Of a stretch of DNA of 64,000 bases, positions 12,671 to 40,127 are shown one piece after another (position 1 is the stretch's first letter; every line of letters starts with the position of its first letter). Source of the DNA: an uncultured Gemmatimonadales bacterium (GTDB taxonomy: Bacteria > Gemmatimonadota > Gemmatimonadetes > Gemmatimonadales > GWC2-71-9). Position numbers and translations under genes: made by a program. Below the pieces are notes generated by a model. It was not told the DNA's origin. It was given only the letters and a program-made list of their open reading frames with translations, and made no database searches. Where the stretch lies: assembly GCA_963842945.1 (NCBI GenBank), contig CAWJIM010000020.1, positions 64,001 to 128,000 of the forward strand, given 5' to 3'.

Positions 12671-12800
12671 GCGGTGAGCGGTGAGCGGAACGGCCGGTGA
12701 GCGGGGAGGACCACATCCTAGCGAGCAGGCTGGTGGCTGTTCGCTGCTCACGCTGCTTTCGTTTTTCTCCCGCTCACGCTGTTCTTCTCACCGCTCACGC
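12671..12800. repeat. Inverted heptamer arrays (GCGGTGA)n ... (TCACCGC)n
   Basis: gcggtga gcggtga gcggaac...ggtga gcgggga right after the pepA stop; tcccgctcacgc...tcaccgctcacgc at 12768-12800. Confidence 0.6.
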
Positions 12801-14573
12801 CTGTCGGCTCAATTCCCCGACGAAGAGGCGGAGGACTCCGCCTCAGCCGACTCCGCCGCCGCCGACACATTCAATACCACCGAGCGCTATCTCCGAGAGC
12901 AGGCGGAGGGAAATGTCCGCGTGCCGGTGCTTCCGTTCCTGAGGGTTGAGGGGCCCCGGCCAGCACTTACCCGGATTGTCTTCACCCGGGACTCGATCGA
13001 ATGGGGACATGCGGCCACACTAGGCGATCTTCTGAGCCAGGTCCCCGGGGTCTATCTCTGGCGCGGCGGTTACATCGGTCGGCCGGAGCCGGTGAACTTC
13101 CAGGGCCGGGGCGCCTCTTCGGTCGAGTACTTCCTGGACGGGATGCCCTATGTCGCGGCGGGAATCGACAGCGTGGCGGTGGATCCGGTTCTGATTTCTC
13201 TGGTGTTCCTCGATCGCATCGAGGTGGAGCGCTGGCCGGGCCAGCTTCGGGTCCATCTGTTCACCCGCCGCAACGAGCGGCTGGCCGCCCGGTCTCGCAT
13301 CGCGATTGCCCGGGGCGACAACAGCTTCGCCCGCTACGACGCCGCCCTGGAGCGCCGGTTCACTTCGGGTGTCGGCTTTACGCTCGCCGGGGATTATCTG
13401 AGCTCGCCCACCCAGGCCGTGGTCGGCAGCACCTACTCCAACACCCAGCTCTGGGCTCAGGGAAGTTATCACCCCACATCCTGGGTGGGTCTGCAGTATC
13501 AGCTGATTCGCACCGCACCTAACCGCCGGGCGTTCGTGATCAACGACGCCGGGGCGCAGGACACCATCGGTCCGGGCTACAAGGCCAAGCGCACGGATGC
13601 ACAGCTCCGGCTCTCGCTTCGCAAGGAGCTCAACGAGCTGGGTCCGCGAGCCGACATCGTGTATTCCCGCACCTCCTGGAACGGGGACGGTCTGGATCAG
13701 CAGATCGACCAGCTGGGCGGACTCCTCAGTTATCGGACCTCCCGGCTTTCATTGGGCGGCTCCGCTTTCCATCGCACTCGCTGGACACCGTTGGATGCTC
13801 GCGTGAATGCGGGACTCAACCCGGTCGGACCCTTCAGCGCCAGCGCGGAACTGGTACACCTGAGCCATTTCGGCGGCAGGGCCAGCGACTACGCCACTCT
13901 CGCCGGCGGACTGGAGCCGTTGCGAGGATTGGCGCTGACCGGCAGCGCGCGATTGGGCAAGGTCGTTGCCGCTCCTTCGATTCCCACCGATCCCGAACAG
14001 GATGTCCACGACCTGCAGGCGGCGCTGGGATGGAGCCGGGGGCGGTTGGGATTTCAGGTGTCCTACGCCCGCACCTCGGCTTTCAGCCCGCTCGGCTACG
14101 CCGATTTTCCTGAGGTTGCTCAAATCGGACCTTCGTCCAGTACGGATTGGATCACCGCGTCGGTCCGGATTGCGCCCCTGCAATGGCTAACCCTGGAGAG
14201 CTGGTACAGCGATCCGGTGGGCGATGTCGGCCCGGAAGGAATTCCTCCTACGCACTCGATAAGCGCGGCCACAATCAGGTCCAAATTCCTCCGAGAGTTT
14301 CCCAGCGGGATTTTCGACCTGAAGCTGCGACTCAGCTTGGAGAGCTGGGGGACCGGAGTGATCGGGCGGGATTCCGTGGGGACACCGATCGAATTGCACG
14401 GGGCAACCTTCCTGCGCAGCCTGGTTCAGGTGCAGCTCGACCGGTTCTACATCTACTGGGACCGAACCAACCTGGGCTCCACCGACCTGACCTACGTGCC
14501 CGGTTTTCGGATTCCGAGCTATGGCAGCAACTTCGGGGTGAGATGGGAGTTCGACAGATTAATTGGCGACTGA
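12681..14573 (+). CDS. TonB-dependent receptor plug-domain outer-membrane protein (start uncertain)
   Basis: TLGDLLSQVPGV..RGG...YFLDGMPY...LDRIEVER plug motif; near-terminal FGVRWEF beta strand. Confidence 0.7.
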   Translation: MSGTAGERGGPHPSEQAGGCSLLTLLSFFSRSRCSSHRSRLSAQFPDEEAEDSASADSAAADTFNTTERYLREQAEGNVRVPVLPFLRVEGPRPALTRIVFTRDSIEWGHAATLGDLLSQVPGVYLWRGGYIGRPEPVNFQGRGASSVEYFLDGMPYVAAGIDSVAVDPVLISLVFLDRIEVERWPGQLRVHLFTRRNERLAARSRIAIARGDNSFARYDAALERRFTSGVGFTLAGDYLSSPTQAVVGSTYSNTQLWAQGSYHPTSWVGLQYQLIRTAPNRRAFVINDAGAQDTIGPGYKAKRTDAQLRLSLRKELNELGPRADIVYSRTSWNGDGLDQQIDQLGGLLSYRTSRLSLGGSAFHRTRWTPLDARVNAGLNPVGPFSASAELVHLSHFGGRASDYATLAGGLEPLRGLALTGSARLGKVVAAPSIPTDPEQDVHDLQAALGWSRGRLGFQVSYARTSAFSPLGYADFPEVAQIGPSSSTDWITASVRIAPLQWLTLESWYSDPVGDVGPEGIPPTHSISAATIRSKFLREFPSGIFDLKLRLSLESWGTGVIGRDSVGTPIELHGATFLRSLVQVQLDRFYIYWDRTNLGSTDLTYVPGFRIPSYGSNFGVRWEFDRLIGD

Positions 14574-14595
14574 GGACTGACGACTGGCGACTGTG
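14568..14595 (+). repeat. Heptamer tandem array (GACTGNN)x4
   Basis: gactgag gactgac gactggc gactgtg. Confidence 0.6.
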
Positions 14596-14678
14596 CTCAC
14601 CATCACTGTCTCTCCAGACTCATCGGGTACCTTATAGGGGTACCACGATGCAGGGCGCCTTCAGCAGAGGAGAGAACT

Positions 14679-14885
14679 ATGTTCGGATTCGGCAACAGGA
14701 ACCGGGGCCGCCGGGTAAGGAACGATACGTTCAGCGGCAGCAGGCTACGGAATGCGGCGCTGGCCGGGGTTGGAATGCTGGCCTGGCGCTGGTGGCGGAA
14801 CCGGCAGGGAAACGCCGCCCGCCCCACGACCTATCAGGACACGTCCTTCAACGACACCTCGACTCGCTCAGCCGGGGCACTCTAG
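14679..14885 (+). CDS. Small basic hypothetical protein with one hydrophobic segment
   Basis: AGAGGAG RBS, 68 aa, followed by a strong hairpin. Confidence 0.6.
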   Translation: MFGFGNRNRGRRVRNDTFSGSRLRNAALAGVGMLAWRWWRNRQGNAARPTTYQDTSFNDTSTRSAGAL

Positions 14886-14911
14886 CAGCGCTAGAGCGTT
14901 TAGAATGTACC

Positions 14912-14948
14912 AGAGGTGGTGGTGCTAAGTTTCGGCACCACCACCTCT
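14912..14948. terminator. Perfect 14-bp hairpin between convergent genes
   Basis: agaggtggtggtgc-N9-gcaccaccacctct. Confidence 0.75.
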
Positions 14949-15020
14949 TGTGCATACGAGTTCAGGTTCCTTCGCATTCGCTCAGGGTGACCGACTCTGA
15001 CGACTGGGGACCGTGGACTC

Positions 15021-17094: not shown

Positions 17095-17157
17095 GGCAGT
17101 CCTCGGTGCGGCGGTCTGGGGGGAAGGCGGGCCGTTCGGGGGCAGATGCTGTGCCAG

Positions 17158-17235
17158 TGGAGCTGGGAGCTAGAAGCTGGGAGCTAGAAGCGTGTCACCA
17201 CCAACCTCTCGGCTCCTAGCTCCAAGCTCCTAGCT
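17158..17235. repeat. Inverted heptamer arrays (AGCTRGR)n ... (AGCTCCW)n
   Basis: agctggg agctaga agctggg agctaga agc, 19-nt spacer, ggctcct agctcca agctcct agct. Confidence 0.8.
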
Positions 17236-17263
17236 GGATTAACTTTCTAGGCTGTTCCGGCTC

Positions 17264-18151: not shown

Positions 18152-18840
18152 AGCCGTTTTTCCTGGTGCTTTCTGCGCCGTCAGGCGGCGGAAAAACCAC
18201 GATTGCCAAGATGCTGTTGCAGGGGCGGGAGGATCTCGGCTACTCGGTCTCGGCAACCACGCGGCCCAAGCGCCCCGATGAACGGGACGGCCTGGACTAC
18301 CACTTCCTCTCCCGCGACGAGTTCATCCGCCGGCGCGATCAGGGAGAATTCCTGGAGTGGGCCACGTACGGTGGCGAGCTCTATGGAACGCTCAAGAGCG
18401 AAATCGAGCGGATTTTTGTCAGCGGCCGAAACGCGGTGCTCGATGTGGAGATCGAGGGCGCCCGGCAGATCCGCAAGAACTTTCCGAATTCGCTGCTGCT
18501 CTTCGTTCTGCCGCCTTCGGCCGATGCACTGGTAGAACGGCTGACCGGCCGGAAGACAGAGGATCCCGAGCTGATGCGGGCGCGGATTTACCGGGCGGCG
18601 GACGAGCTCGTGGCGATCGCGGAATACGATTACGCCATCTACAACGAAGATCTGGTCGTCGCGGTTGCCCAGGTCGCCGCTATTCTGGAAGCGGAGTCCT
18701 GGCGAGTGGCCAGGCAGGACACCTTGCCGGATTTCATCGAGAAGCTGCGGCGGGACGTGGTCAAGGCGGCGGAGAAAATTGGAAGGGGTCAGCGAGTCAC
18801 GAGTCACGAGTCACGGACTAGCGCGCGACTCCGCTCCTAG
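18148..18840 (+). CDS. gmk: Guanylate kinase
   Basis: SAPSGGGKTT, SVSATTRPKR, DGLDYHF, FLEWA, YGT. Confidence 0.95.
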   Translation: MKPFFLVLSAPSGGGKTTIAKMLLQGREDLGYSVSATTRPKRPDERDGLDYHFLSRDEFIRRRDQGEFLEWATYGGELYGTLKSEIERIFVSGRNAVLDVEIEGARQIRKNFPNSLLLFVLPPSADALVERLTGRKTEDPELMRARIYRAADELVAIAEYDYAIYNEDLVVAVAQVAAILEAESWRVARQDTLPDFIEKLRRDVVKAAEKIGRGQRVTSHESRTSARLRS

Positions 18841-18883
18841 GCAGTAATTCTGACTCGCGACTCACGACTCGTCGACTCGCGAC
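18794..18883. repeat. Inverted heptamer arrays (GAGTCAC)x3 ... (YGACTCR)n at the gmk/rpoZ junction
   Basis: gagtcac x3 at 18794-18814; tgactcg cgactca cgactcg tcgactc gcgac at 18851-18883. Confidence 0.8.
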
Positions 18884-19114: not shown

Positions 19115-20310
19115 CCGTGTGGGCCGGCCGACGCGTCGTCCTCGGCGTGTCCGGCGGTATCGCCAGCTATAAGAGCTGCATTCTCGCCCGGCGTCTCACC
19201 GAGGCCGGCGCCGAGGTCGAAGTGGTGCTGACCAAAGGGGCTGGGGAGTTTGTCGGTCCAGTCAGTTTCGAGGCGCTTACCGGGCGCCCGGTCCTGAGCT
19301 CACTCTGGGAGCGGGGCAGGGCGCTCGCGCATATCCAGCTCAGCCAGGCCGCCGACCTCATCATTGTCGCGCCGGCCACCGCACACCTGATCGCCCGCGC
19401 CGCTCAGGGGCTGGCCGACGATATCCTGACCACGCTGCTCCTGGCGCGCACGGCGCCTCTGCTTCTGGCTCCGGCGATGAACGACGAGATGTACGCCCGC
19501 CCCGAGACGCAGGCCAACCTAGAGAGGCTGCGGGCGCGGGGAGTGACGCTGGTGGGACCTGAGATCGGCGCCCTGGCTGAGGGCCCTTCGGAGCGTCCCG
19601 GCCGGATGAGTGAGCCCGAGACCATCATGGCTCATGCCGCCCGTCTCCTGAATGGCGGCCACCTCTCGGGCCGCAAGGTCATTGTAACCGCCGGCCCGAC
19701 CCGCGAGTCGATCGATCCGGTTCGCGTGGTGACTAATCGGTCGAGCGGCAAGATGGGCTTCCGGGTGGCTGAGGCGGCGTGGGAGCGAGGGGCCGACGTG
19801 GTCCTGATCAGCGGCCCCGTCGCGCTACAGGATCCGGTCGGGGTGGTCGTGCGCCGGGTGGAGACGACGCTCGAGATGGAGCAGGCGGTCCGGGCGGAGC
19901 TTCCCCAGGCCGACGTGCTGATCATGGCCGCGGCGCCCGCCGACTTTCGTCCCACCAGTCCCAGCGACGGCAAGCGCCCGCGGGTAGATGGCGCCCTGGC
20001 TATTCCCATGGAGCCCACCGGTGACGTGCTCGACTCCACCCGGGGCCTGCGGAAGCCCGGCAGCCTCATCGTCGGCTTTGCTCTGGAGACGGGCGACGCG
20101 TTGGCCAAGGGCCTGGCCAAGCTGGAGCGGAAGGGACTGGATCTGGTCGTGGTCAACGATGCGCTCGAGCCCGGAGCCGGGTTCGAGAAGGACACCAATC
20201 GCGTCGCCCTTCTCGGCCGGGACGGTACCCGGCAGATTCTGCCGCTCCAGTCCAAGCGTGAAGTTGCCGAGTCGATCCTCGATCGGGTGGAGCAGACCAT
20301 TGGCCGGTGA
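19111..20310 (+). CDS. coaBC: Bifunctional phosphopantothenoylcysteine decarboxylase/synthetase
   Basis: GVSGGIASYK, APAMN, TAGPTRESIDPVRVVTNRSSGKMG, VGFALET. Confidence 0.95.
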   Translation: MTVWAGRRVVLGVSGGIASYKSCILARRLTEAGAEVEVVLTKGAGEFVGPVSFEALTGRPVLSSLWERGRALAHIQLSQAADLIIVAPATAHLIARAAQGLADDILTTLLLARTAPLLLAPAMNDEMYARPETQANLERLRARGVTLVGPEIGALAEGPSERPGRMSEPETIMAHAARLLNGGHLSGRKVIVTAGPTRESIDPVRVVTNRSSGKMGFRVAEAAWERGADVVLISGPVALQDPVGVVVRRVETTLEMEQAVRAELPQADVLIMAAAPADFRPTSPSDGKRPRVDGALAIPMEPTGDVLDSTRGLRKPGSLIVGFALETGDALAKGLAKLERKGLDLVVVNDALEPGAGFEKDTNRVALLGRDGTRQILPLQSKREVAESILDRVEQTIGR

Positions 20311-21135
20311 ATGGGAGCGGTATCTGCGGCAGCAGATTGAGCTGGGGGGTGCGGAGGTCGTGGTGTCCACGGCGGGGCGGCGGGGCAGCGGGGCAGCGGG
20401 GCAGGAAGCACAGCAGTGCAGCAGGGCACAGGGCGGTAACGCGGACGAGAGCATCTGGGGCCGCACCGCCGCCTCGCGGTCCCGCTGCCCCGCTGCCCCG
20501 CTGGAAGCAGGGCTGCCCACCCATTCCCGGTCCCGGGCTCGCCGTCGAGTCGCCGAGTCATGTGCTCGACGATGAGCTGGTTGCGCTGGAGACGCTGGAG
20601 GAAGTCGCCGAGCGGATCCGCACGACGCATTGTTGTGCGCTTGTGTCCCAACCGGACCAACGCGGTTCCCGGTGAGGGAAATCCCCGGGCAAAACTCTTT
20701 CTGGTGGGTGAGGGCCCGGGCGCTACCGAGGACGCGCAGGGCCGCCCCTTCGTGGGCCAGGCGGGAAATCTGCTCAACGGCATTCTGGAGGCCATTGAAG
20801 TCCCCCGCGACTCCGTCTACATCACCAACATTGTCAAGTGCCGACCGCCCCAGAACCGAAAGCCCTTGCCCGATGAGATCGCGGCCTGTATTCCATATCT
20901 ACATCGCCAGATCGAGATCGTTCAGCCGAAGGTAATCGTGACCCTCGGGAGCACTGCGGGCGAGGCGATGCTGGGGGTGAGAAAGAGTCTGGGGGAACTG
21001 CGCGGCAAGGTGCACACGTACAACGGTATTCCGCTGGTCGTGACGTATCATCCCGCGGCACTGCTCCGCAACCCGAACTGGAAGAAGCCTACCTGGGATG
21101 ACGTCCGTATCGCACGACAACTACTCGACCGCTGA
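20300..21135 (+). CDS. Family 4 uracil-DNA glycosylase with N-terminal extension (frameshifted)
   Basis: VGEGPG, GRPFVG, NIVKCRPPQNR, TYHPAALLRNP; N-terminus MAGEWERYLRQQIELG. Confidence 0.9.
20372..20503. repeat. Inverted octamer arrays (GCGGGGCA)n ... (TGCCCCGC)n inside the UDG linker
   Basis: Four GGGG units at 20374-20401; cccgctgccccgctgccccgctg at 20481-20503. Confidence 0.8.
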
Positions 21136-22484: not shown

Positions 22485-22513
22485 GCGGGGCAGCGCGGCA
22501 GCGGGGCAGCGGG
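22485..22513 (+). repeat. Octamer array (GCGGGGCA)x3-4 after the dnaB stop
   Basis: gcggggca gcgcggca gcggggca gcggg. Confidence 0.7.
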
Positions 22514-22545: not shown

Positions 22546-23936
22546 ATGCCTAAACCCAGATCCGTCTACCGCTGCACCGAGTGCGGGCACGAGCACCCCA
22601 AATGGGTGGGGCGGTGCGAGGCGTGCGCGGCGTGGAACTCGGTCGCGGAGGAGCCGGTCGGTACAGGCGGTCGGGCGGAAAGGCGGTAAGCAGACTCGGC
22701 AGAGGGTTCCGTCGTACCGCCTTACCGACCGTACCGCCCACCCGACTGCGTGACGTCGCCGGCGCAGCCAGCTGCGAGCGCTGGCGGACGGGACTGAACG
22801 AATTCGATTTCGTGCTCGGCGGCGGGATCGTCCCCGGATCGATGACGCTCATCGGCGGTGAGCCAGGCATCGGCAAGTCCACCCTCCTGCTTCAAGCCGC
22901 CGCGCGGCTGGAGAACGCGGGCCATACGGTGTCTTGTACACCAGCGGCGAGGAGTCGCCGGACCAGATCCGGCTTCGGGCCGACCGGCTGATCAACGAAG
23001 ATGCCGGGCCGGTGCATGTGCTGGGCGAAACCCGGCTCGAATCAATCATCCAGGCGGTCGGCAGCCGTAGGCGCCGATGTGGTGGTGATCGATTCGATCC
23101 AGACGGTGTACACCGATCAGCTGGAGAGCGCGCCCGGCAACGTGGGGCAGGTGCGCGAGTGCTCCGGCCAGCTCATGCGGTTCGCCAAGGAAAGCGGAAC
23201 CTCGGTCATCGTGGTCGGGCACGTCACCAAGGGTGGCGGCATCGCCGGACCCAAGACGCTGGAGCACATCGTCGACACCGTCCTGTATTTCGAGGGCGAA
23301 GCCACGCTGGATTACCGGCTGCTGCGAACCACCAAGAACCGGTTTGGCTCGGTCGATGAGCTCGGAGTGTTCTCCATGACCGAGAGCGGTCTGGTGGCGG
23401 TGCCCAACCCCTCGGCGGTGTTCCTTGCGGCGCGGGCCGGAGGCATCAGCGGCAGCGCCGTCACCGCGCTCATGGAGGGGACCCGGCCGGTGCTGGTGGA
23501 GGTCCAGGCCCTCGCGGCCAAGTCCGGCTACGGCACACCGCAGCGGGTGGCTACCGGGCTGGATCCCCGGCGGCTGGCGGTACTTCTCGCGGTACTGGAG
23601 CGCCGGGCAGACACCTCGTTTGCCAATCTGGACGTCTTCGTTCAGGTCACCGCGGGTGTGCGGCTCAACGAGCCGGGCGCCGATCTCGCCGTTGCCGCCG
23701 CACTGCTCTCCAGCTTGTACAACCGGCCGGCGCCGGCCGACGTGGTCTTTCTGGGCGAGATCGGGCTCGGCGGCGAGATCCGGCCCAGCGGAGCGGTCGA
23801 GCGCCGGATCGCCGAAGCGGTCCGGCTCGGCTTTCCGCGGGTGTTCGGCTCCTCCCGCAGCACCGTGCAGGTGCCCGGCGCATCGCTGGTGGGACTGGAT
23901 CACGTGGATCAGCTGGTGCAGGCTCTTGCCGCGTGA
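22546..23936 (+). CDS. radA: DNA repair protein RadA/Sms (three frameshifts)
   Basis: C4 zinc finger, [29 protein letters not shown]. Confidence 0.93.
22657..22746. repeat. Inverted octamer arrays (GGCGGTAN)n ... (NTACCGCC)n in the radA linker
   Basis: gtcggtac aggcggtc gggcggaa aggcggta / ccgtcgta ccgcctta ccgaccgt accgccca cccgac. Confidence 0.7.
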
Positions 23937-24636
23937 CGTCGCTGCAATTGTAGTCGCCGGAGGGCAGGGCGTTCGGCTCGGCGGGGGCATCCCCAAGCAG
24001 TATCGCCCGGTCGGAGGAATTCCCATCGTGCTTCGGGCGCTTCGTCCCTTCACCTCTCATCCCGAGGTCGCACAGGTCGTGCTGGTGCTGCCCCCGTCAG
24101 ACGCGGCCCAGCCCCCCGATTTCCTCTCCGAGCTTCGGTCTGCTCGCGGCGCCTGGCTTTCTCTGTCACTGCCGGCGGGGTCCCACCGGGGAGATTCGGT
24201 GCGCAACGGGCTGGCCCAGCTGGGAGACTCCTGCGCCGTGGTGCTGGTGCACGATGGCGCCCGCCCCTTCGTCGACCGCGACGTGATCGACGGCGGTCAT
24301 CATGTATGCCCGGCAAGGACAGGGTGCGGTCGCCGCGGTGCCGCTCAGCGACACCCTGAAGGAAGCGTCGCGCCGTGAGCCCAGCCGGGTGTCTGCGAAC
24401 CCGGCCCCGGGCGCGTCTCTGGCGGGCGCAGACTCCGCAGGGATTCCCCCGCGCCATCCTGGAGCAGGCCTACCAGCGGGCGGCACGGCTGGGCCGCCGG
24501 GCCAGCGACGACGCCGCGCTGGTAGAAGCCATGGGTGTTCCGGTCCGACTGGTGCCCGACTCGACGCAGGAACCTCAAGATCACCACGGCAGAGGATCTC
24601 GAGCTCGCCGAGCTGCTCGCCGGGGCCCCAAGGTGA
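23926..24636 (+). CDS. ispD: 2-C-methyl-D-erythritol 4-phosphate cytidylyltransferase (frameshifted)
   Basis: [46 protein letters not shown]. Confidence 0.9.
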
Positions 24637-25286
24637 TTCTGCCGTTTCGCACCGACGACGAGGTCGCCGCCGCTATTCCCCAGATCGGGCCGGCATCTCA
24701 GCGCCGGGAAATTGCTGGCCTATCCCACTGAAACCGTGTACGGCCTCGGTTCGGCTCCCACCGTTCCCGCGCTGGCCGCACTGGCCCGGCTCAAGGGCAG
24801 GCCGGAGGGTAAGCCGTTCCTGCTCCTGATCTCCGGCCGGCGCATGGCCGAAGAGTGGGGACTGGTGTTCACGGCGTCGGCCACGGCGCTGTCGGATGCG
24901 TTCTGGCCGGGTCCGCTCACCCTGGTGCTTCGCGGAGGCGAGGGGCGGTTGCCGGACGAGCTCCGGGGCAGGGAAGGCGGGATCGCGGTGCGGTACACGT
25001 CCCACCCCGGCATCGCCCGCCTGGTGGCGGCCACTCGGCGAGCCGCTGACCTCCACCTCCGCCAACCGGCCGGGCGGCCCTCCGGCGCCAGGGGCAGACC
25101 GGCTGGTCGAAGTGTTCGGGCCGGAGGAGCGCAACGGCGAGCTGCTGGTGCTCGATGGAGGCGTGCTCGGCAACGTGCCGCCATCGACCCTGGTCGATTG
25201 CACCGACGCCGTGCCTCGTCTGGTGCGCGAAGGCGCGATTCCGCAGGAGCGAACTGCGCCGGGCCGCGGGCAGGCTGGCACCGTGA
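24633..25286 (+). CDS. tsaC: L-threonylcarbamoyladenylate synthase (Sua5/YrdC), frameshifted
   Basis: [45 protein letters not shown]. Confidence 0.9.
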
Positions 25287-25396
25287 CAGCGGGGCAGAGG
25301 GAAAGCAGGGGAAGCGGGGCGGCAACAGCACATCGGAGTCGCTACGCCGGTGTGCGGCGCTGCATCGCTGCCGCGCTGCCCCGCTTCCCCGCTGTT
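25286..25396. repeat. Inverted octamer arrays (GCGGGGMA)n ... (TKCCCCGC)n
   Basis: acagcggggcagagggaaagcaggggaagcggggcggc ... gctgccgcgctgccccgcttccccgctgt. Confidence 0.75.
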
Positions 25397-25408
25397 ATCT
25401 TCTGAGCA

Positions 25409-25867
25409 ATGCACGTCCTCTTCGTCTGCACCGGAAACACCTGCCGCAGTCCCATGGCCGAAGCACTGCTGCGCGAGGCGCTCGCCAGCCGCGGCGCGGA
25501 GCAGGTTACCGTTTCGTCCGCCGGCACCGGCGCATGGGATGGGGCGCCGATCTCCGAAGGCGCTTATCTGGTCGGACTGGAGCACGGCCTGGATCTCAGC
25601 GGCCATCGCGCGCAGCTGCTCACCCGCGAGGCGGTCAAGGCGGCCGACCTGATTCTCACCATGTCCGGTCACCATCGCGCCCGGGTGGCAGAGCTCGGCG
25701 GAGAGGAGAAGGTCCACGTGCTGGGCGATTACGCCGGACGGGAAGCGGGCCGCACCGAGGTGAGCGACCCGTTCGGCTCCGATCTCGCCAGCTACCGGCA
25801 GACCTATGATGAGCTTCAGGAGCTGATCGGCGGGGTGGTCAGCCGGGTGGCCGGCACCGTGCGGTGA
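25409..25867 (+). CDS. Low-molecular-weight protein Tyr/Arg phosphatase
   Basis: VLFVCTGNTCRSPMAE P-loop; DPFG. Confidence 0.92.
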   Translation: MHVLFVCTGNTCRSPMAEALLREALASRGAEQVTVSSAGTGAWDGAPISEGAYLVGLEHGLDLSGHRAQLLTREAVKAADLILTMSGHHRARVAELGGEEKVHVLGDYAGREAGRTEVSDPFGSDLASYRQTYDELQELIGGVVSRVAGTVR

Positions 25868-26674
25868 TCAGCGGCAACTCCCGGGTCCTCGTCATTCTGG
25901 GAGACCCGGTCTCACACTCCCTCTCTCCTATCATGCACAACGCCGCCTTCCGCGCTCTCGGAATGCCCGCGGTGTACGTGCCTCTTCGATGCCGGGCCGA
26001 AGATCTTGCTGCGCTCATCCGCGGCATTGCGCCATGCGGGCGGCGGTGGGAACGTGACGGTTCCTCACAAGGAGATCGCCGCCCGGTCGGTCGACACGTC
26101 CCGTGAGCTGGTGCAGACCGTAGAAGCCTGCAACACCTTCTGGAACGAGGACGGCAGGACGGTGGGAGACAACACCGACGTGCCGGGTCTACTGGAGGCG
26201 CTTGCACCAGCTCGAGGTGAGGCAGGAGCCGTGGTTCATCCAGGGCACCGGCGGCGGGGCGCGAGCGGCGGTGGTCGCGGCGCGGCGCAGCATGGGGTGC
26301 CGGTTGCAGTCGGCTCGCGGAGATCCGCGCCGGCAGAGCGAGTTCGAGCGATGGATCGGTTCGCGCGGTGTTGCGCTGGCCGAGCCCTCCGAGCTGCCGG
26401 GTGCTGATCAACTCCACTCCCCTGGGTCTCAAGCCCGACAGATCCTCTTCCGATCGACCTCGGCCGGTTTCCCCGAGCGGAGGTGGCCTTCGACATGGTA
26501 TATGCGCCGGGCGAGACCAGCTGGATCCGCAGCGTGCGGCCGCGGGTGCGTCGCTCTGCGGATGGCCGCGCCATGCTGGTGGCTCAGGGGGCGGCCGCTT
26601 TCGAGCGCTGGTTTCCCGGCAAGCGCGCTCCGGTCGAGGTCATGCGAGCAGCGGTAAATGGCGCACTCCGTTAG
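25864..26674 (+). CDS. aroE: Shikimate dehydrogenase (frameshifted)
   Basis: HSLSPIMHN, NVTVPHKE, NTDVPG, GTGGGARA, INSTPLG, DGRAMLVAQG. Confidence 0.9.
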
Positions 26675-27452
26675 GGAGACGCTCGCCCGGGTAGAGCGCT
26701 GGCTGCTGCCGCCGGCGTGCCTGCTCTGCCACGAGCCGGTGCCGGAGCGGGAGCAATGACAGCCTCATCTGCGGCGTGTGCCGCTCGCGCTGGCGCCCCG
26801 TGCCCCATCCGCTATGCGGCCGCTGCGGGCAACCCAGCTTGCGGGACCTCGATTGCCGGCTCTGTCAGCAGTGGCCGGCCGGGCTCTCCCGGGTCCGCAG
26901 CGCGGTTTGGCTGGAGGGCTCCGCGCGAGCTGCGGTGCACCAGCTCAAGTACGAAGGCTGGAGCCGGGCTGCCGAGGCGCTGGCGTTGTCCATGCGAGCA
27001 CCTCGAGCCATTGACTGAGGGGGTATCCTTGTTACCGATACCACTGGGGAAGCGGCGTCTCAGGGCCCGGGGGTACAATCAGAGTGAGCGCATTGCCGCA
27101 GCGCTCGGCGCGCTCATCGGGGCCCCGGTCCGGTGCGAACGCGCTATGGCGGGTGAGAGAGACGCCGACCCAGACCGCGCTCACTCCCGAGGCGCGCCAC
27201 GCCAACGTGGCAGGGGCCTTTCAGGCTGCGGATGGTGACCGGACTCAACGTGGTGCTGGTGGACGATGTGTTCACCACCGGGGCCACGCTCGCCTCGGCT
27301 GGAGCGGCGCTGGCCGCAGCCGGCGCCGCGCGGATCGAAGCGGTGACGTTTGCCCGCGCGCAATCAGGAGCTCGCTCACGACTGAGCCGATCCCTGGCGG
27401 CGCTCAGGATGACGAGGCGCGCGACTCGCGACTCGGGACTCGCGACTACTAA
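26658..27452 (+). CDS. comF: ComF-family protein (double zinc ribbon + PRTase), frameshifted
   Basis: CLLC/CGRC zinc motifs, [24 protein letters not shown]. Confidence 0.85.
27422..27450 (+). repeat. Heptamer array (GACTCGS)x4 just before the gap RBS
   Basis: gactcgc gactcgg gactcgc gactact. Confidence 0.7.
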
Positions 27453-27462: not shown

Positions 27463-28476
27463 ATGCCCATTCGCATCGGCATCAACGGCTTTGGCCGGAT
27501 CGGTCGGAACGTGCTCCGCGCCTCCAAGGCCATGCGGGTCAACGACCTCGATTTCGTGGCGGTCAACGATCTGACCGACACCAGGACGCTCGCACACCTG
27601 CTCAAGTTCGACTCCGTTCACGGCCGGTTTCAGGGTGATGTGACTCCCGAATCCGACGGCATCTGCGTGGATGGCGATTCTATCCGGGTACTCTCCGAGA
27701 AGGATCCCGCCAAGCTGCCATGGAAGGATCTCGGCGTCGACATTGTGCTCGAGTCGACCGGACGGTTCACCGACCGGGATCAGGCCGCGCTGCATCTCAA
27801 GGGTGGGGCCAAGAAGGTGATCATTTCCGCGCCAGCCAAGAAGGAAGACATCACCATCGTCTACGGAGTGAACCACAAGTCGTACGATGCAGGCAAGCAC
27901 CACGTGATCTCAAACGCGAGCTGCACCACCAACTGCCTGGTTCCCGTGGTGAAGGTGATCCTGGACCGGTTCGGCTTCGTCAGCGGCTTCATGACGACGA
28001 TCCACTCGTACACCAACGATCAGCAGATTCTCGATTTGCCCCATAAGGACCTGCGGCGGGCCCGGGCGGCCGCCCTCTCCATCATTCCTACCACGACGGG
28101 AGCCGCGAAGGCGACGTCGCTGGTGCTGCCGGAAGTCAAAGGCAAGATCGACGGCGTTTCCCTCCGGGTGCCCACGCCCGACGTTTCGGTCGTCGCGCTG
28201 ACCTGCGTGGTGCAGAAGGCCACCTCGGCCGACGAGGTCAATGCCGCCTTCCGCGAGGCGGCCAAGTCCGGGCCACTGCAGGATGTGCTGGCGGTGAGTG
28301 AAGAGCCGCTGGTCTCGGTGGACTACATCGGCTCGCTCCAATCGAGCACGATGGATGCGATGTCAACCAATGTCGTCAACGGGACGCTGGTGAATGTCAC
28401 CTCCTGGTACGACAACGAAATGGGCTACTCGGCCAGGTGCGTTGACCTGCTGCGCTATATCGGGAACACCCGGTGA
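27463..28476 (+). CDS. gap: Glyceraldehyde-3-phosphate dehydrogenase type I
   Basis: [35 protein letters not shown]. Confidence 0.97.
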
Positions 28477-29665
28477 AGCGTTCGCTCGAATCGCTGGACA
28501 AGTCATCGCTGGAAGGCCGTCGCGCGCTGGTGCGGGTGGACTTCAACGTGCCCCTCAAGGACGGCAAGGTCACGGACGATACCCGCATCCGGGCCGCGCT
28601 CCCCACCATCAAATACCTCCGGGAGCGGGGCGCTCGACTGGTGCTGCTCTCGCATCTCGGCCGGCCCAAGAACGGCCCCGACCCGAAGTATTCCATGCAG
28701 CCGGTGGTACGAGCCCTGGAAAAGCTGCTTGGGCTCGCCGGTCACCTTTCTGCCTGATCCAACGTCGAGCGACGCCGCTACCCTGACCAGGCGACTGCCT
28801 CGGGGCGGTGTGGCGGTGGCGGAGAACACCCGGTTTTATCCTGGGGAGGAAAAGAACGATCCTCAGCTGGCACAGCGAGTTTGCCGCGCTGGGCGATCTT
28901 TACGTCAACGATGCTTTCGGCTCAGCCCATCGGGCTCACGCCAGCACCGAGGCCATCGCCCGGATCCTGAAGCCCGCGGTCTCCGGGTTTCTCATGGAGC
29001 GGGAGCTTCGCTATCTGGGGGAGGCGCTGCACCAGCCGAAGCGGCCCTTCGTGGCGGTACTGGGGGGAGCCAAGATCAGCGGAAAAATCGATCTGATCGA
29101 GGCACTGCTGCCCAAGGTCGATGAAGTCCTTCTTGGCGGGGCCATGGCCTGCACCTTCTTCAAGGCCATGGGGCTCGAAACCGGGAACTCGCTGGTGGAG
29201 CCCGATCGGCTCGATTTGGCCCGGGCCCTGATGAAGAAAGCCGGAAGCAAGCTGGTGCTGCCGGAGGGTGGTGTCATTGCGCGCGAGCTGGCGCCCAACA
29301 CCGAGACTCGGGTGGTGGGCCGCGACGCGATCCCGCAAGGGTGGGCGGTCTACGACATCGATCCCGGCACTGAGAAGCGCTTCGGCGCCAGCATCGAGGA
29401 GGCCGGGACCGTAGTGTGGAATGGACCGATGGGCGTGTTCGAGACTCCGCCGTTCGACCACGGCACTCTCGCCGTGGCCCGCTCCATGGCCCGAGCGACG
29501 GCGAACGGGGCGGTGACGGTGATTGGTGGCGGCGATTCCGCGGCAGCTGTGGCTCAGGCCAAGCTGAGTGACCAGATCACCCATGTCTCTACCGGGGGCG
29601 GCGCGTCGCTCGAATTTCTCGAGGGCAAGGAGCTTCCTGGCGTGGCCGCGCTGGACGGGGTGTAA
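28473..29665 (+). CDS. pgk: Phosphoglycerate kinase (frameshifted)
   Basis: [44 protein letters not shown]. Confidence 0.95.
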
Positions 29666-30516: not shown

Positions 30517-31401
30517 ATGCCCGAGCTTCCCGACATCACACTGTACCTGGAGCAGCTGACGCCGCGTATTCTGGGCCAGCCGTTGCTCCGCCTGGTTTTT
30601 CGGAGCCCGTTCATCTTGAGGTCGGTGGACCCTCCGCCTTCGGCGTTTGCGGGAAAGCGAGTGATAGGCCTTCAACGGCTGGGCAAGCGGATTGTGCTGC
30701 AGTGTGAAGACGAGCTCTTCATCGTGATTCACCTGATGATTGCCGGCCGACTGCGCTGGAAGCCGCCCGAAGCCAAGACCGGCGGGAAGCTGGTGCTTGC
30801 CGCGCTGGAGTTTCCCCACGGCTCATTGCAGCTCACCGAGGCCGGGAGCAAGCGGCGGGCTTCTATTCATCTGGTGGCTGGGTCGGAGCAGCTGCGGGCG
30901 TTCGAGCGCGGGGGCCTGGAGGTGCTTGACGCAGGGCTCGAGGATTTTGCGACCCGGCTCCGATCTGAGAATCACACTCTCAAACGCGCTCTGACTGACC
31001 CGCGGCTTTTCAGCGGTATCGGCAATGCTTACTCGGACGAGATCCTCCACCGCGCCCGGATGTCGCCACTGACGCTTACCGGCAAACTGACGGATGAGCA
31101 GGTGGCCACGCTGTTCGGCGCCACCCAGGCCACCCTGAACGAATGGACCGAGCGGCTGCGGCAGGAGGCGGGAGACCGTTTTCCTGAGAAGGTCACGGCC
31201 TTCCGGGAGGGGATGGCGGTGCATGGCCGTTTCGGAAAACCGTGCCCGGTGTGCTCCTCTCCGGTTCAGCGAATCCGCTATGCCGATAACGAGACCAACT
31301 ACTGCGCCCGCTGCCAGACAGGCGGGCGGCTCCTGGCCGACCGGGCCCTTTCCCGGTTGTTGAAGCAGGATTGGCCGAGATCGATTGATGAGGTGGAGTA
31401 G
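30517..31401 (+). CDS. Fpg/Nei-family DNA glycosylase
   Basis: N-terminal [21 protein letters not shown] (H2TH), C-terminal C4 zinc finger. Confidence 0.9.
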
Positions 31402-31403
31402 GT

Positions 31404-31444
31404 AGTCGGGAGTCGGGAGTCGGGAGTCAGGAGTCGGAGTCGGG
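31404..31444 (+). repeat. (AGTCGGG)x6 tandem array, left arm of the four-helix-bundle cassette
   Basis: agtcggg agtcggg agtcggg agtcagg agtcgg agtcggg, starting 3 nt after the fpg stop. Confidence 0.9.
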
Positions 31445-31460
31445 AATTCCGAGTTGAAAG

Positions 31461-31835
31461 TCAGGTGGAGCTACACATCCTAGGCCTTTGAAGTGACCGA
31501 ACCAGGCCATTCAGCATCTTGCTTATTATCTCCGAATCTCTGTCTAAACTGGCCCATGTCTCTCTTGACACATAACCCAGATCGCGGGATAGCAGTAACT
31601 GACATTCGATCTCTCTAACCGATCCGCGTGCAATCTTGAGAAAACGGGCCAGCTCACGATCACCCAGACGACCCTCTCCTTCAGCGATATTTGAAACCAG
31701 CGAAACCGCCGCGCGTCTAAGCTGGGCCGCCAGCGCGTAACGCTCGCGATCCGGAAATGAAGCAGTGCAACGATATACTTCCAGCGCGAAGGTGTGAGCG
31801 CGTTTCCATACTGCGAGGTCACGATAGTTTCCCAT
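31461..31835 (-). CDS. Four helix bundle protein (23S rRNA-IVP / TIGR02436-like)
   Basis: YRDLAVWKRA, FPDRERYALAAQLRRAAVSLVSNIAEG, FLKIARGS..E...QL..SRDLGY; antisense to both neighbours, lower GC. Confidence 0.93.
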   Translation of the reverse strand: MGNYRDLAVWKRAHTFALEVYRCTASFPDRERYALAAQLRRAAVSLVSNIAEGEGRLGDRELARFLKIARGSVREIECQLLLSRDLGYVSRETWASLDRDSEIISKMLNGLVRSLQRPRMCSST

Positions 31836-31910
31836 TGCTGAACGGTAGTGATTATGGGGTTTCCTTCGGACATCGTTCTAACGCCCCTCACATCTATTCC
31901 CTTCAGATCG

Positions 31911-31937
31911 CCCGACTCCTGACTCCCGACTCCAGAC
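31911..31937 (-). repeat. (CCCGACT)x4 tandem array, right arm (reverse complement of the left arm)
   Basis: cccgact cctgact cccgact ccagac. Confidence 0.9.
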
Positions 31938-31969: not shown

Positions 31970-31976
31970 CACCACC

Positions 31977-33994: not shown

Positions 33995-34068
33995 AGCTTC
34001 AGCTTTCCCCGTGTTCGAGAGTCGCTTTGGGCCCCGAGTCTCAGGGCGACTCTTGTTACCTTTCAGTC

Positions 34069-34332
34069 ATGACCGCAGTTGCCTCGACCGTCACCATTCG
34101 GGTTTTGCTCCTCGCCAGCTATGCCGAGCTGCTGGGCAGCGACGCTTTGGAGCTCGTGCTGGACAATCCGGCGCGGGTCAGCGACGCACTCGAGCGGCTC
34201 CGTGCCTTTCCCGGCGGCGAGCGGCTCCCCGCCAAGCCACTCTGCGCCCTCAATTTGACGCAGGTCACGCCGGACACTCCGCTCAGCGCGGGTGACGAGC
34301 TTGCCATCCTCCCGCCGCTTTCGGGTGGTTGA
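34069..34332 (+). CDS. moaD: Molybdopterin synthase sulfur carrier subunit
   Basis: C-terminal GDELAILPPLSGG. Confidence 0.9.
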   Translation: MTAVASTVTIRVLLLASYAELLGSDALELVLDNPARVSDALERLRAFPGGERLPAKPLCALNLTQVTPDTPLSAGDELAILPPLSGG

Positions 34333-34336
34333 GCCG

Positions 34337-34849
34337 ATGTATTTGACCTCTGACGCGATCGACCTCGGCTCGCTGCTAGCCCAGGTGCAATCTCCCCGGC
34401 ATGGCGGGATCGCCAGCTTTCTGGGAGCGGTGCGGGATCATCAGGCTGGGCGATCGGTGCTCCGTCTGGAATACTCGGCCTACCAGCCGATGGCGGAAGC
34501 CGAGTGCGCCCGGATCGTGCGAGAGGCGGAGTCGGAGTGGAACTGCGTCGTCGCGCTGAAGCACCGGATAGGAACGCTGCAAATCGGTGACGTCGCTGTT
34601 GCCATCGTTGCTGCCTCGGCTCACCGCGAGGAGGCGTTTGCCGCCTGCCGCTATGTGATCGAAGAGGTGAAGCGGCGAGTGCCGATCTGGAAGCAGGAGG
34701 TCTTTGCCGACGGGTCGGTGGAGTGGGTGGGAGGCGGGGCAGCGGGGCAGCGGGGCAGCGGGGCGGTTGAACAGCCGAATAGTCTTGCCGACCATGCAGC
34801 CTATACCAGCGGAGCCAACCACGCTGATGGGTACGGGGAGGAATCGTGA
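34337..34849 (+). CDS. moaE: Molybdopterin synthase catalytic subunit
   Basis: FLGAVRD, LEYSAY, HRIGTL, SAHREEAF, VPIWKQE; repeat-derived C-terminal tail. Confidence 0.92.
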   Translation: MYLTSDAIDLGSLLAQVQSPRHGGIASFLGAVRDHQAGRSVLRLEYSAYQPMAEAECARIVREAESEWNCVVALKHRIGTLQIGDVAVAIVAASAHREEAFAACRYVIEEVKRRVPIWKQEVFADGSVEWVGGGAAGQRGSGAVEQPNSLADHAAYTSGANHADGYGEES

Positions 34850-34886
34850 GTGCCGCCGTGCTGCCCCGCCGCCCCGCTGCCCCGCT
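34734..34886. repeat. Inverted octamer arrays (GCGGGGCA)x4 ... (TGCCCCGC)n spanning the moaE/moaA overlap
   Basis: GGGG units at 34736, 34744, 34752, 34760; ctgccccgccgccccgctgccccgct at 34861-34886. Confidence 0.85.
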
Positions 34887-35901: not shown

Positions 35902-36404
35902 TGCCGCTCCACGTTGCGCTCATCGAACCTCAGATTCCTCCCAACACCGGCAACATCGCTCGACTCTGCGCGGCCACCGACACTCCGCTGCACCTGATCG
36001 AGCCCCTGGGCTTCAGTATCAATGACGCCGAGGTCCGCCGAGCCGGGCTGGACTACTGGGGCGCGGTAGACCTCTGGGTGCACCCGAACTGGTTCGCCTT
36101 TCGTGACGCCATGGACCGTTCCCGCTGTCTGTACTTCTCCGCCAAGGCGGAGCAGAGCTTCTGGGACGCCCCCTACAAGCCGAACAGCTGTCTGGTCTTC
36201 GGGAGCGAGACCGAGGGCATGCCGGAACGGATTCTGGAAAAGCATCCGGAACGCTGCTTTACCATCCCGATGTCCGGGCCGGTGCGAAATCTCAATCTCT
36301 CGAATGCCGTGAGCATTGTGCTGTACGAGGCGATCAGGCAGGTGAGGGGAAGTCGCGAGTCACGAGTCGGGAGCCACGAGCACTCGCACGAAGAATCTTC
36401 ATAG
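35901..36404 (+). CDS. trmL: tRNA (cytidine(34)-2'-O)-methyltransferase
   Basis: PQIPPNTGNIARLCA, RRAGLDYW, FGSETEG, IPM, LNLSNAV. Confidence 0.92.
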   Translation: MPLHVALIEPQIPPNTGNIARLCAATDTPLHLIEPLGFSINDAEVRRAGLDYWGAVDLWVHPNWFAFRDAMDRSRCLYFSAKAEQSFWDAPYKPNSCLVFGSETEGMPERILEKHPERCFTIPMSGPVRNLNLSNAVSIVLYEAIRQVRGSRESRVGSHEHSHEESS

Positions 36405-36462
36405 CGGTAAGCCGTCTTCACTCCAAGCGCCTCATGACTCGCTACTCGTGACTCGCGACTCT
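36351..36462. repeat. Inverted heptamer arrays (AGTCRSG)n ... (YGACTCG)n at the trmL/mdh junction
   Basis: agtcgcg agtcacg agtcggg agccacg / tgactcg ctactcg tgactcg cgactct. Confidence 0.8.
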
Positions 36463-36526
36463 ACACAACTATATTGCGGCGGCTTGGGCTGCTACACCTT
36501 CTTCATCGCTGCAGAGAGCTCTTCGA

Positions 36527-37456: not shown

Positions 37457-37469
37457 GCGGAGTTGCCGA

Positions 37470-38129
37470 ATGAATCGGCTGTGGTTGCTGTGGGACTCGT
37501 CGGTGGGGAAAAAGGTGGTCATGGCCGTGACTGGCCTGATCATGCTGGCCTATCTCATCACCCATGTGCTGGCCAATCTTCTGGTGTTTCAGGGGCCAAC
37601 CAGGATCAATGCCTACAGCGCGTTCCTCCACGGCACAGGCGGCGCGCTCTGGGCGGCGCGCCTGGTGTTGCTCGGCTCGCTTCTCCTGCACGTTGTGGCT
37701 GCGGTCCAGCTGGCGGGACGCCAGGCCGAGGCGAGACCCGTCGCATACGCCGCCGGGCGCAAGCCGCAGGTCTCGACCTGGGCATCGCGCAGCATTCGCT
37801 GGGGCGGCGCGCTCATCCTGGCCTTCCTGGTCTATCACATCCTCCACTTCACTATCGGCACCGCCCACCCGGACTTCGTTGAGGGCGACCCATACCACAA
37901 CGTAGCGACCGGATTCCACAATCCTGTCGTGGTGGTTGTCTACCTGGTGGCCCTCGCCGCAGTCGGTCTACATCTGTATCACGGGGTCTGGAGCAGCGGG
38001 CGGAGTCTGGGCATGAGCCCACCGACTCCCAACCCGCTTCGGCGTACGGTGGCAATGGTGCTGGCGCTGCTCGTCTGGCTGGGCTTTACCGTGATCCCGC
38101 TTGCGGTGTACGCTGGGGTGATCCGATGA
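37470..38129 (+). CDS. sdhC: Succinate dehydrogenase/fumarate reductase cytochrome b subunit
   Basis: [13 protein letters not shown], heme-ligand His residues in TM helices, HLYHG. Confidence 0.88.
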
Positions 38130-40042
38130 TCGAGTTGCGCTCCAGAGTGCCCGTCGGGCCAATCGAACAGAAGTGGGACAAGCACCGGTTCGAGATGCGA
38201 CTGGTGAATCCGGCCAACAAGCGGAAACACACAGTTCTGCTGGTGGGAAGCGGTCTGGCCGGGGCGTCGGCCGCAGCGTCGCTGAGTGAGCTGGGTTATC
38301 AGGTCAAATGCTTCTGCTTTCAGGACTCGCCCCGGCGGGCTCACAGCATCGCGGCCCAAGGCGGAATCAACGCGGCCAAGAACTATCGGAACGACGGCGA
38401 CAGCATCTATCGCCTGTTCTATGACACGGTCAAAGGCGGAGACTTCCGTTCTCGAGAGGCCAACGTCTACCGGCTGGCGCAGCTGAGCGTCGAGATCATT
38501 GACCAGTGCGTGGCCCAGGGCGTGCCCTTTGCCCGGGAATACGGCGGCCTTCTGGCCAATCGCTCCTTCGGCGGGGCTCAGGTCTCCCGGACATTCTATG
38601 CCCGAGGCCAAACCGGCCAACAGCTGCTGCTCGGCGCATACCAGCAGATGCAGAAGGAGATCGACCGGGGCGGGGTAACCATGTATCCCCGAACCGAGAT
38701 GCTGGACCTGATCGTCATCGATGGCCGGGCCCGGGGAATCGTGGCCCGGGACATGGTCTCAGGGAAGATCACCTCGCACGTTGGGGACGCCGTGGTGTTG
38801 GGCACCGGCGGGTACGGCAACGTTTTTTATCTCTCGACCAACGCCAAAGGGTCCAACGCCACCGCTATCTGGAGGGCACACAAGCGGGGAGCGGCGTTCG
38901 CCAACCCGTGCTTCACCCAGATCCACCCCACCTGCATTCCGGTGAGTGGCGACTACCAGTCGAAGCTGACCCTGATGAGCGAGTCGCTTCGGAATGACGG
39001 ACGGGTGTGGGTGCCCCGCACGCAAGGCGACAAGCGGCCGGCCTCCCAGATTCCCGACTCGGAGCGGGATTACTACCTGGAGCGGAAGTACCCGAGCTTC
39101 GGCAATCTGGCTCCCCGTGATATCGCTTCCCGGGCGGCGAAAGAAGTCTGCGACGAAGGCCGGGGGGTCGGTGAGAGCGGGCTCGGCGTGTATCTCGACT
39201 TTGCCGACGCCATCAGACGATTAGGCGAGCACGCCATTCGGGACCGTTACGGCAATCTCTTCGAGATGTACCAGCGAATCACCGACGAGAATCCGTATCA
39301 TGCGCCGATGCGAATCTACCCCGCCGTGCACTACACCATGGGCGGGCTGTGGGTGGACTACAACCTGATGAGCACCATTCCCGGTTTGCATGTGATCGGC
39401 GAGGCAAACTTCTCGGATCACGGCGCCAACCGGTTGGGCGCGAGTGCGTTGATGCAGGGCCTGGCCGACGGCTATTTCATCCTCCCGGCGACCATCGCCG
39501 ACTATCTGGCTTCCGCCAAGCTGGACAAGGTCGAGGCGTCGCATCCCGAGTGCGTCCGCTTCGAGGCAGAGGTCGCGGGCTACACCCGCAAGCTGCTCGG
39601 GATCAAAGGCAAGCGGACGGTGGATTCGTTCCATCGCGAGCTGGGGAAGCTGATGTGGGACAAGTGCGGAATGGCGCGGAGTGCCGAAGGGCTGCGGGGA
39701 GCGCTGGCCCAGATACCGGCGCTGCGGGAGGAGTTCTGGCGAAACGTCAACGTTCCCGGCAGCGATGCCGAGCTGAATCAGGCGCTGGAGCGGGCCGGCC
39801 GGGTGGCCGACTTTCTGGAGCTGAGTGAGCTCATGTGCCGGGATGCCCTGCATCGGGAAGAGTCTTGTGGCGGCCATTTCCGGGTGGAGTACCAGACGCC
39901 GGACGGCGAGGCGCTGAGGAACGATCAGGATTTTGCCTACGTGGCAGCCTGGGAGTATTCGGGACCGGGCCGCGAGCCCCGGATGCACAAGGAGCCGCTG
40001 GAGTTCGAGTACGTGCAGCTGGCCCAGCGGAGCTACAAGTGA
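38126..40042 (+). CDS. sdhA: Succinate dehydrogenase/fumarate reductase flavoprotein
   Basis: [34 protein letters not shown]. Confidence 0.95.
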
Positions 40043-40127
40043 GTCGGGAGCTGGGAGTCAGGAGTCGGGAGACTTACGGCGGTGAAGGGACTCTGTGGCT
40101 CCTGACTCCCGACTCTCGACTCCTGAC
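40041..40127. repeat. Inverted heptamer arrays (GAGTCGG)n ... (ACTCCYG)n between sdhA and sdhB
   Basis: gagtcgg gagctgg gagtcag gagtcgg gag, about 26-nt spacer, gctcctg actcccg actctcg actcctg ac. Confidence 0.88.

Follow-up and report, generated by a model that had tools for sequence, protein, structure and literature searches.

Paired inverted arrays of short tandem repeats occur in a 64,000-nucleotide stretch of the genome of an uncultured Gemmatimonadales bacterium (GenBank assembly GCA_963842945.1, contig CAWJIM010000020.1, positions 64,001 to 128,000; hereafter the window), and because the same inverted repeats bracket genes for a small four-helix-bundle protein, the gene-less pairs are likely to derive from a small selfish gene cassette, as helper-dependent copies or as remnants. 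On balance, we lean towards a protein-dependent selfish module organized much like REPINs and their RAYTs: the protein is predicted to bind the arrays ('arms') of a pair and to keep the gene-less copies turning over. In the putative cassette, the four-helix-bundle gene is flanked on each side by a run of about four 7-9-base repeats, the two runs being inverted relative to each other. The window belongs to a 4.3-Mb genome (87% complete, with 6% contamination reported); contigs, genomes and loci are designated C, G and L, respectively.

The association between arrays and four-helix-bundle genes, hinted at in a first-pass annotation of the window, holds both in this genome and in its relatives. 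Matched arms spanned six of the seven TIGR02436 genes of the genome (some of them broken) according to our arm detector, with degenerate arms visible by eye around the seventh; among relatives, spanning arms were found at 100 of the 127 four-helix-bundle genes with both flanks, versus 34 of 300 swapped-flank controls. The cassette units (AGTCGGG, GCGGTGA, GCGGGGCA, GGCGGTAA and GGGAAGGAC) are also the main classes of gene-less arrays. Each protein clade has one unit type; arm similarity rose with protein identity (rho 0.43, over pairs that are not independent), and one 47-row protein clade held 8/9-mer cassettes only (SH-aLRT 94 in a quick tree of the 94 cassettes with strong arms). Within the window, a long pair (31395-31937) encloses a minus-strand four-helix-bundle gene:

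31395..31437, plus strand: left arm of the loaded cassette, unit AGTCGGG, beginning at the fpg stop codon (31401)
31461..31835, minus strand: four-helix-bundle gene (TIGR02436 / PF05635 23S_rRNA_IVP), 124 amino acids, 53% GC, a relative of Xcc0516
31911..31937, minus strand: right arm of the loaded cassette, upstream of secG

The encoded protein matched TIGR02436 at 118.5 bits (cut-off 24) and PF05635 at 123.9 bits (cut-off 33.8). Its structure model (pLDDT 92.4) has four long helices and resembles Xcc0516 (PDB 2GSC), a protein of no known function, with a TM score of 0.91 at 40% identity; BT_0352 (2RLD) was a further family structure set beside it, and Avd of diversity-generating retroelements (4DWL, 8UB7) was more distant (TM 0.78). 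Xcc0516 is described as a homopentamer in the accessible text of PMC4990558, and by homology the window protein is probably a pentamer too. The four-helix-bundle genes are under purifying selection (median dN/dS of 0.05-0.15 over 15 usable pairs, with dS near saturation).

Gene-less arms tend to resemble the cassettes of their own genome. Across 25 genomes, 9-mer sharing between gene-less arms and own-genome cassette arms was 0.17, compared with 0.061 ± 0.017 for shuffled labels, a level reached in 0 of 20,000 label shuffles, and the own genome was a better match than the nearest relative in 14 genomes, a worse one in 7 and tied in 4. The linker of the uracil-DNA glycosylase gene (udg) has a different unit in this genome and in each of the two relatives nearest to it, and two of these three units match a cassette of the genome in which they occur; in G011 the rare TCGGAGAG unit occurs in both the udg linker and a cassette. 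The subfamily of the window protein (at least 55% identity) was present in 16 of the 61 genomes, with AGTC-type arrays in all 16 and in 8 of the 45 others, a comparison that ignores kinship and in which the backwards control of G075 exceeds its count. Among predictions set beforehand, the cognate cassette was found in G071 and G073, a near match in G049 and none in G076 (83% complete); of the array-poor genomes, G068 and G044 were without the gene and G042 had three.

Gene-less pairs outnumber loaded ones more than tenfold in the genome. All ten paired arrays reported for the window in the first-pass annotation are present, with matched inverted arms and the purine-rich arm first; its four single arms fared less uniformly, those at 14568, 22485 and 27422 passing the arm detector without a same-unit partner and that at 14993 being seen only by eye. 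Besides the loaded cassette, the window contains the following:

12667..12800: gene-less pair, unit GCGGTGA/GCGGTAA, overlapping the pepA stop codon
14568..14593: single arm, GACTGRC on the plus strand, at the stop of a TonB-dependent receptor-like gene
14993..15019: weak single arm, under the detector threshold, past the stop of a minus-strand gene at 15021
17159..17235: gene-less pair preceding yicC, unit GGAGCTR
18792..18883: gene-less pair across the 3' end of gmk, ahead of rpoZ, unit GAGTCAC/GAGTCGC
20372..20503: gene-less pair within the N-terminal linker of the family-4 udg, unit GCGGGGCA
22485..22513, plus strand: single arm, GCGGGGCA, directly past the dnaB stop
22657..22746: gene-less pair, unit GGCGGTAN, in the radA linker that joins the zinc ribbon to the ATPase domain
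25286..25396: gene-less pair, unit GCGGGGCA/GCGGGGAA, ahead of a low-molecular-weight phosphatase gene
27420..27447, minus strand: single arm, CGCGACT on the plus strand, ahead of the gapA start
34734..34886: gene-less pair, unit GCGGGGCA, from the moaE tail to the moaA start
36351..36461: gene-less pair, unit AGTCGCG, from the trmL tail to mdh
40041..40127: gene-less pair, unit GGGAGTC, beginning in the sdhA stop codon, before sdhB

The first of these pairs is the weakest of the ten (arm score 12.5), and its unit class is that of three four-helix-bundle cassettes on contigs C22, C19 and C24; the pair at 17159..17235 is absent from a related contig in run X3. The two pairs within the coding linkers of radA and udg correct a purely intergenic placement. 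No pair was detected in 1-12.5 kb or 41-64 kb, in keeping with the earlier description; a polysaccharide-type gene cluster (48250-55545) and a Flp/Tad-pilus-like cluster (58279-64000) are array-free, judged from translations of open reading frames (ORFs) only.

Genome-wide, 359 arrays remained after merging, with 144, 149 and 68 of periods 7, 8 and 9 and only 3, 3 and 4 of periods 5, 10 and 11, so that the units first described as 7-8-mers are confirmed for those two periods and a 9-mer class is present as well. Of the 163 purine-rich anchors, 63 had their inverted partner to the right and 0 to the left; of the 152 pyrimidine-rich ones, 66 had it to the left and 2 to the right. Against 0.7% in random windows, pairing is above chance and strongly directional. 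About 200 arrays are unpaired. There are 111 pairs (56, 43 and 12 of periods 7, 8 and 9), of which 108 have the purine/G-rich arm first, 2 are reversed and 1 is a tie, extending the fixed polarity noted for the window to the whole genome. In relatives, some first arms are G-rich, not purine-rich, and cassettes were purine-first by unit in 87 of 101. Arms average 4.1 units (mode 4-4.5), with class-specific register and outer and inner ends. The earlier claim that arrays are confined to core operons was too strong: they occur throughout the genome, only at lower density where the DNA is atypical (per 10 kb, 0.33 at 61-64% GC and 0.71-0.86 at 64-68%; rho of 0.27 between array density and codon typicality).

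Gaps between paired arms are bimodal, with 102 pairs below 200 bp, 9 at 350-600 bp and none in between. One long pair lies in a coding linker and three enclose other small ORFs of about 105-200 amino acids (C4:99996-100577, C19:238516-239117 and C23:161577-162231), which are either cargo or coincidence. The armed layout is not unique to one protein family, because three GxxExxY (TIGR04256) genes, one intact and two broken (C24:146431-146778, plus strand; C18:60365-60574 and C19:168241-168441, both minus strand), are flanked by inverted purine-first 9-10-mer arms of types CACAGAGG, CACGGAAG and CACGGATG (two by detector, one by eye); arms resembling this type occur gene-less at trmL-mdh in relatives L080, L083 and L090. 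Neighbouring arms with the usual polarity and unlike units, and compound arms of two units, were observed at C16:88569, C21:45228, C23:107699, C19:239046 and C19:296963, which suggests one-at-a-time arm replacement or nesting.

The junctions of the window pairs were compared with those of relatives among the 30 best-scoring loci of 60 genomes each, so these samples lean to close kin. Paired arms were present at trmL-mdh in 13 of 27 relatives, at moaE-moaA in 13 of 26, at gmk-rpoZ in 14 of 29, at sdhA-sdhB in 12 of 29 (with at least eight different units), in the radA linker in 10 of 29 and in the udg linker in 11 of 23, linker length being a multiple of 3 in 28 of 29 relatives for radA and 21 of 23 for udg. 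The period is constant at each site and the unit variable, and spacers, which had looked unrelated within the window, are also unrelated across relatives except for the closest species. Both arms of a pair change together (left/right arm agreement within versus between genomes of 0.21/0.07, 0.26/0.04 and 0.11/0.04 at three sites). Because a 500-bp loaded cassette could hardly have sat in the radA and udg linkers, the pairs there were probably written or copied in place. More broadly, core proteins, RadA and uracil-DNA glycosylase among them, have linkers and tails that the pairs reshape.

At fpg-secG, several states of one site can be compared. Seventeen relatives had both anchors (12 further loci without the fpg anchor were left out): 7 are loaded, 3 hold gene-less pairs, 5 are collapsed (by eye) and 2 have no paired arms, and two of the 7 loaded cassettes have the opposite orientation between the arms. 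In G066, the spacer of the gene-less pair is similar to the leader of one loaded relative (score 30, against 26 for the best of 300 shuffles), with weaker or no matches to five other loaded relatives, and at C16:133600-134170 a decayed four-helix-bundle gene (score 65 versus 29) lies between degenerate GTGAGCG/GTGAACG arms; these two cases indicate that some empty pairs arise by gene loss. The C16 gene is intact in G011 and G017, and its ACGGTAA array class still comprises 13 arrays in this genome. Comparison of spacers with a loaded relative at the same site gave a match at two sites, of which one may include arm sequence and the other is the C16 relic against two relatives, and none at three.

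A number of observations weigh against a helper-dependent selfish module. Nine of the 25 genomes have almost no own-genome match (0.04 or less), and presence-absence counts are confounded by kinship. AGTC arrays occur with no cognate gene detected in G008, G024, G051 and G057 (95-99% complete); no four-helix-bundle gene was found in G022 (80% complete, 440 contigs), with 232 matches to the 9-mer pattern, the highest count of the 61 genomes, nor in G044 (97% complete), which nevertheless has a pair in radA. A full gene was found at none of six window-pair junctions (23-29 relatives each; longest 351 bp), and of 20 sites that are loaded in relatives, just 3 have a detected pair here (baseline 3.3%), one of these with a single syntenic flank; a few of the other sites show decayed remains, and most are clean. 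Unlike those of ordinary element copies, the spacers are nearly all unique, and no convincing gene trace was found in 76 of them. The single Y1 transposase gene of the genome (PF01797) has flanks without arms, and no PF00078 reverse transcriptase was found in this 87% complete genome.

The spacers had been considered as shared or gene-derived, and this was rejected on blastn and tblastx searches that gave noise only, save for arm sequence and another dispersed palindrome. The 76 spacers included a single exact duplicate (C11/C21, possibly a duplicated stretch) and otherwise gave only short matches; the two pairs concerned (C11:1524 and C21:195029) have identical spacers and near-identical flanks and are probably a duplicated stretch or contamination. 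No target-site duplication was apparent by eye in the flanks of pairs.

Under the favoured reading of a protein-dependent module, the predicted pentamer would bind four to five units of its own repeat, roughly one unit per subunit, and would act on DNA rather than on RNA stems; once bound, it may promote arm copying or replacement through host repair or a partner nuclease. Cutting and joining may fall to host recombination and repair or to the nuclease-like GxxExxY genes, whose arms are similar. Some empty pairs would then be deletion remnants, and others (radA, udg) may have been written or copied in place. The preference voiced at first pass for a dedicated mechanism over plain slippage or a single family of miniature inverted-repeat transposable elements stands in so far as matched arms and locus-specific units need more than either, the generating mechanism itself remaining putative; the spacers also lack the conserved internal sequence expected of such a family.

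Closely similar arrays occur in other taxa. According to the main text of Rehm et al. 2015 (PMC4692102), Xanthomonas genomes carry about 185 GGGAATC runs each, four units being the usual length; 70-75 convergent inverted pairs are present in each genome, mostly intergenic and with the G-rich run next to or overlapping stop codons; the runs are read there as possible quadruplexes and tied to no gene, and the terms 'four helix' and 'intervening' are absent from that text. The pairs described here are likewise convergent (108 of 111 with the same polarity), with a median of 4.1 units and arm ends near gene ends, and differ from the one unit class of Xanthomonas in having five or more classes, plus 8- and 9-mers. 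In three of three Xanthomonas genomes, the sole TIGR02436 gene (the Xcc0516 ortholog) lies inside inverted GGGAATC-type arms. GGGAATC runs in other taxa had an inverted partner downstream in 20 of 74 cases and upstream in 1 of 73, and no four-helix-bundle gene was found within 700 bp of 80 perfect GGGAATC runs using a profile from this order's proteins. In a Luteimonas genome, both four-helix-bundle genes are armed with their own units, and in a Moorena genome five of six have paired heptamer arms, again with their own units. Cyanobacterial short tandemly repeated repetitive (STRR) sequences are heptamer repeats; the likeness of the window arrays to them was called superficial at first pass, and because five of the six Moorena genes carry such arms, it is more than that. 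Both STRR sequences and the TAACTGA repeats of Beggiatoaceae are, like the arrays here, short intergenic heptamer runs close to gene ends. The TAACTGA repeats are mostly unpaired direct repeats (MacGregor 2015, PMC4679880), and the main text of that paper contains no four-helix-bundle term.

The protein family is otherwise associated with intervening sequences (IVSs) of rRNA genes. In the Coxiella 23S IVS, terminal inverted repeats form a stem and tandem heptamers lie upstream of the S23p ORF (Warrier et al. 2016, PMC4990558, accessible text). A PF05635 protein and terminal inverted repeats around its ORF are present here as well; unlike an rRNA IVS, the window cassette lies between fpg and secG, outside rRNA, and the cassettes here lie between or in protein genes. 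An Rfam search of the window gave zero matches, which leaves a Gut-1 motif lead without support here. In a relative, one armed four-helix-bundle cassette (L050, G009:C13) sits within a 23S rRNA gene as a true IVS, whereas this genome has no insertion at the corresponding position (C1:130 kb); L015, in which 23S rRNA is joined to a protein gene via arms, may be misassembled and was excluded.

REPINs, in the accessible text of Bertels and Rainey 2011 (PMC3116915), are non-coding inverted doublets with variable spacers and singlet remnants, accompanied by a repeat-flanked resident gene. The pairs here share with them the over-represented, hairpin-capable inverted doublets and the tie of a unit group to a gene flanked by the same repeat; unlike REPINs, they have arms of tandem 7-9-mers rather than palindromic REPs, and their partner gene encodes a four-helix bundle where RAYTs are HUH tyrosine transposases. 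Tandem instead of palindromic arms and an unarmed Y1 transposase gene place the system outside the REPIN/RAYT family. A diversity-generating retroelement was also rejected, given the lack of a PF00078 match and an Avd profile that scored the window protein at 21.3 bits, far short of its cut-off of 80. No DUF559 was found.

Gene-less pairs and IVSs have each been published; their union by a rule of one protein, one repeat did not turn up in full-text literature searches, which, with most subscription papers and all supplements outside their reach, retrieved no paper that ties this family of genes to repeat pairs across a genome. This genome contributes the sheer number of gene-less pairs, coding copies that stay in frame, the test of matching to own-genome cassettes, the wobble test below with its negative outcome and the Xanthomonas link. 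Three loose ends meet in these pairs, namely the excess of 7-9-base tandem repeats in many bacteria, the function of the widespread S23p/23S_rRNA_IVP proteins and the origin of ORF-bearing rRNA IVSs, and a protein-dependent module would account for published heptamer repeats of other bacteria that are so far without explanation. Under the one-protein, one-repeat rule, a protein of 124 residues with a known fold and an oligonucleotide of 30 bases would suffice to test all three, and this genome, with five or more protein clades that each have their own unit, is a natural specificity panel.

Of the competing explanations, a host RNA function survives best and is still, in our estimate, unlikely: pairs would be mRNA hairpins (RNase III, pause, stability or translation signals) kept by host selection, and the four-helix-bundle protein would possibly bind them as a regulator. 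Strong predicted folds speak for it (z of -4.0 to -8.0 for the nine gene-less window pairs, with 0 of 200 shuffles as good), as does the proximity of arms to gene ends, 48 of 110 arm ends facing a gene end being within 12 nt (17 of 110 pairs lie inside ORFs; distances and count are approximate, since they come from a home-made gene caller on a frameshift-rich assembly). Moreover, RNase III cuts the homologous Coxiella IVS at the first heptamer (PMC4990558, accessible text), the structural relative Avd belongs to an RNA-protein complex, and loaded cassettes lean to G-U (141 versus 113, p 0.09). Gene-less pairs, however, have no excess of G-U over A-C on the transcribed strand (97 versus 114 in 85 pairs; 36 versus 46 in 34 pairs of relatives), which speaks against the selection for RNA stems entertained at first pass. 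At each junction, roughly every second relative is without the pair, udg-linker units are unrelated even in close species (marker DNA identity of 88-92%), a few neighbouring arms have non-matching units with the polarity retained, and the main text of Rehm et al. 2015 (PMC4692102) reports no clear expression trend for repeat-linked genes.

It is also rather unlikely that the pentamers are sequence-specific writers of their own repeat, which would flank a DNA break with about four units to either side, or overwrite an older pair, without a transposase, each protein clade acting alone or with a partner such as the GxxExxY nuclease. If true, this would give rRNA IVSs, the Xanthomonas GGGAATC pairs and cyanobacterial heptamer repeats a common source.

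We consider improbable a history of neutral scars, in which an inserted cassette loses its gene and the arms left behind drift (through slippage inside single arms, template switches from one arm to the other or conversion among copies), the protein having no role. The loaded-to-empty series at fpg-secG, the leader-like spacer of G066, the relic at C16:133.6-134.1 kb, the constancy of period class at each site and the genomes in which arrays outlast the gene would all fit such a history. It sits poorly with the in-frame radA and udg pairs, which could hardly have passed through a 500-bp loaded state, with a radA linker length held at 72-99 nt with or without arms, with the purifying selection on the gene and with unit switches that track own-genome cassettes, as for TCGGAGAG in G011.

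More doubtful still is repeat addition, whereby a protein-guided enzyme would extend each 3' end at a DNA break by about four units, with filler DNA joining the extended ends, giving head-to-head G-rich arms as in a telomere fusion. This would suit the G-rich run pointing inwards on both strands, the unique spacers (GC 59% versus 63% for intergenic DNA), the fixed arm register with a modal length of 4-4.5 units, first units that often share bases with the flanking stop codon, and the compound and mismatched arms. Yet fixed register and class-specific ends fit copying of an element end equally well, the stop-codon overlap may stem from selection, and the search for a reverse transcriptase (PF00078) came back empty.

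A long-read assembly artefact, suggested by the many apparent frameshifts in core genes (20300-20640, 22546-23936, 23926-26840 and 28473-29665, in udg, radA, pgk and others, including radA and udg beside arrays), is refuted by the orthologous sites, which carry pairs in numerous further species of the genus; in addition, the 18794 pair is spanned by a contig of 156 bases from the independent run X2. The frameshifts are typical of an unpolished long-read assembly, and the frame breaks in radA and udg here are probably errors.

Finally, a second dispersed palindrome (of the TCATCCTGAGCG... type) is often found next to or within pairs, as at 27380-27412 of the window and in the spacers of L074, L076, L108, L111, L170, L173 and L178; it may be akin to CGTC-tagged REP-like repeats.

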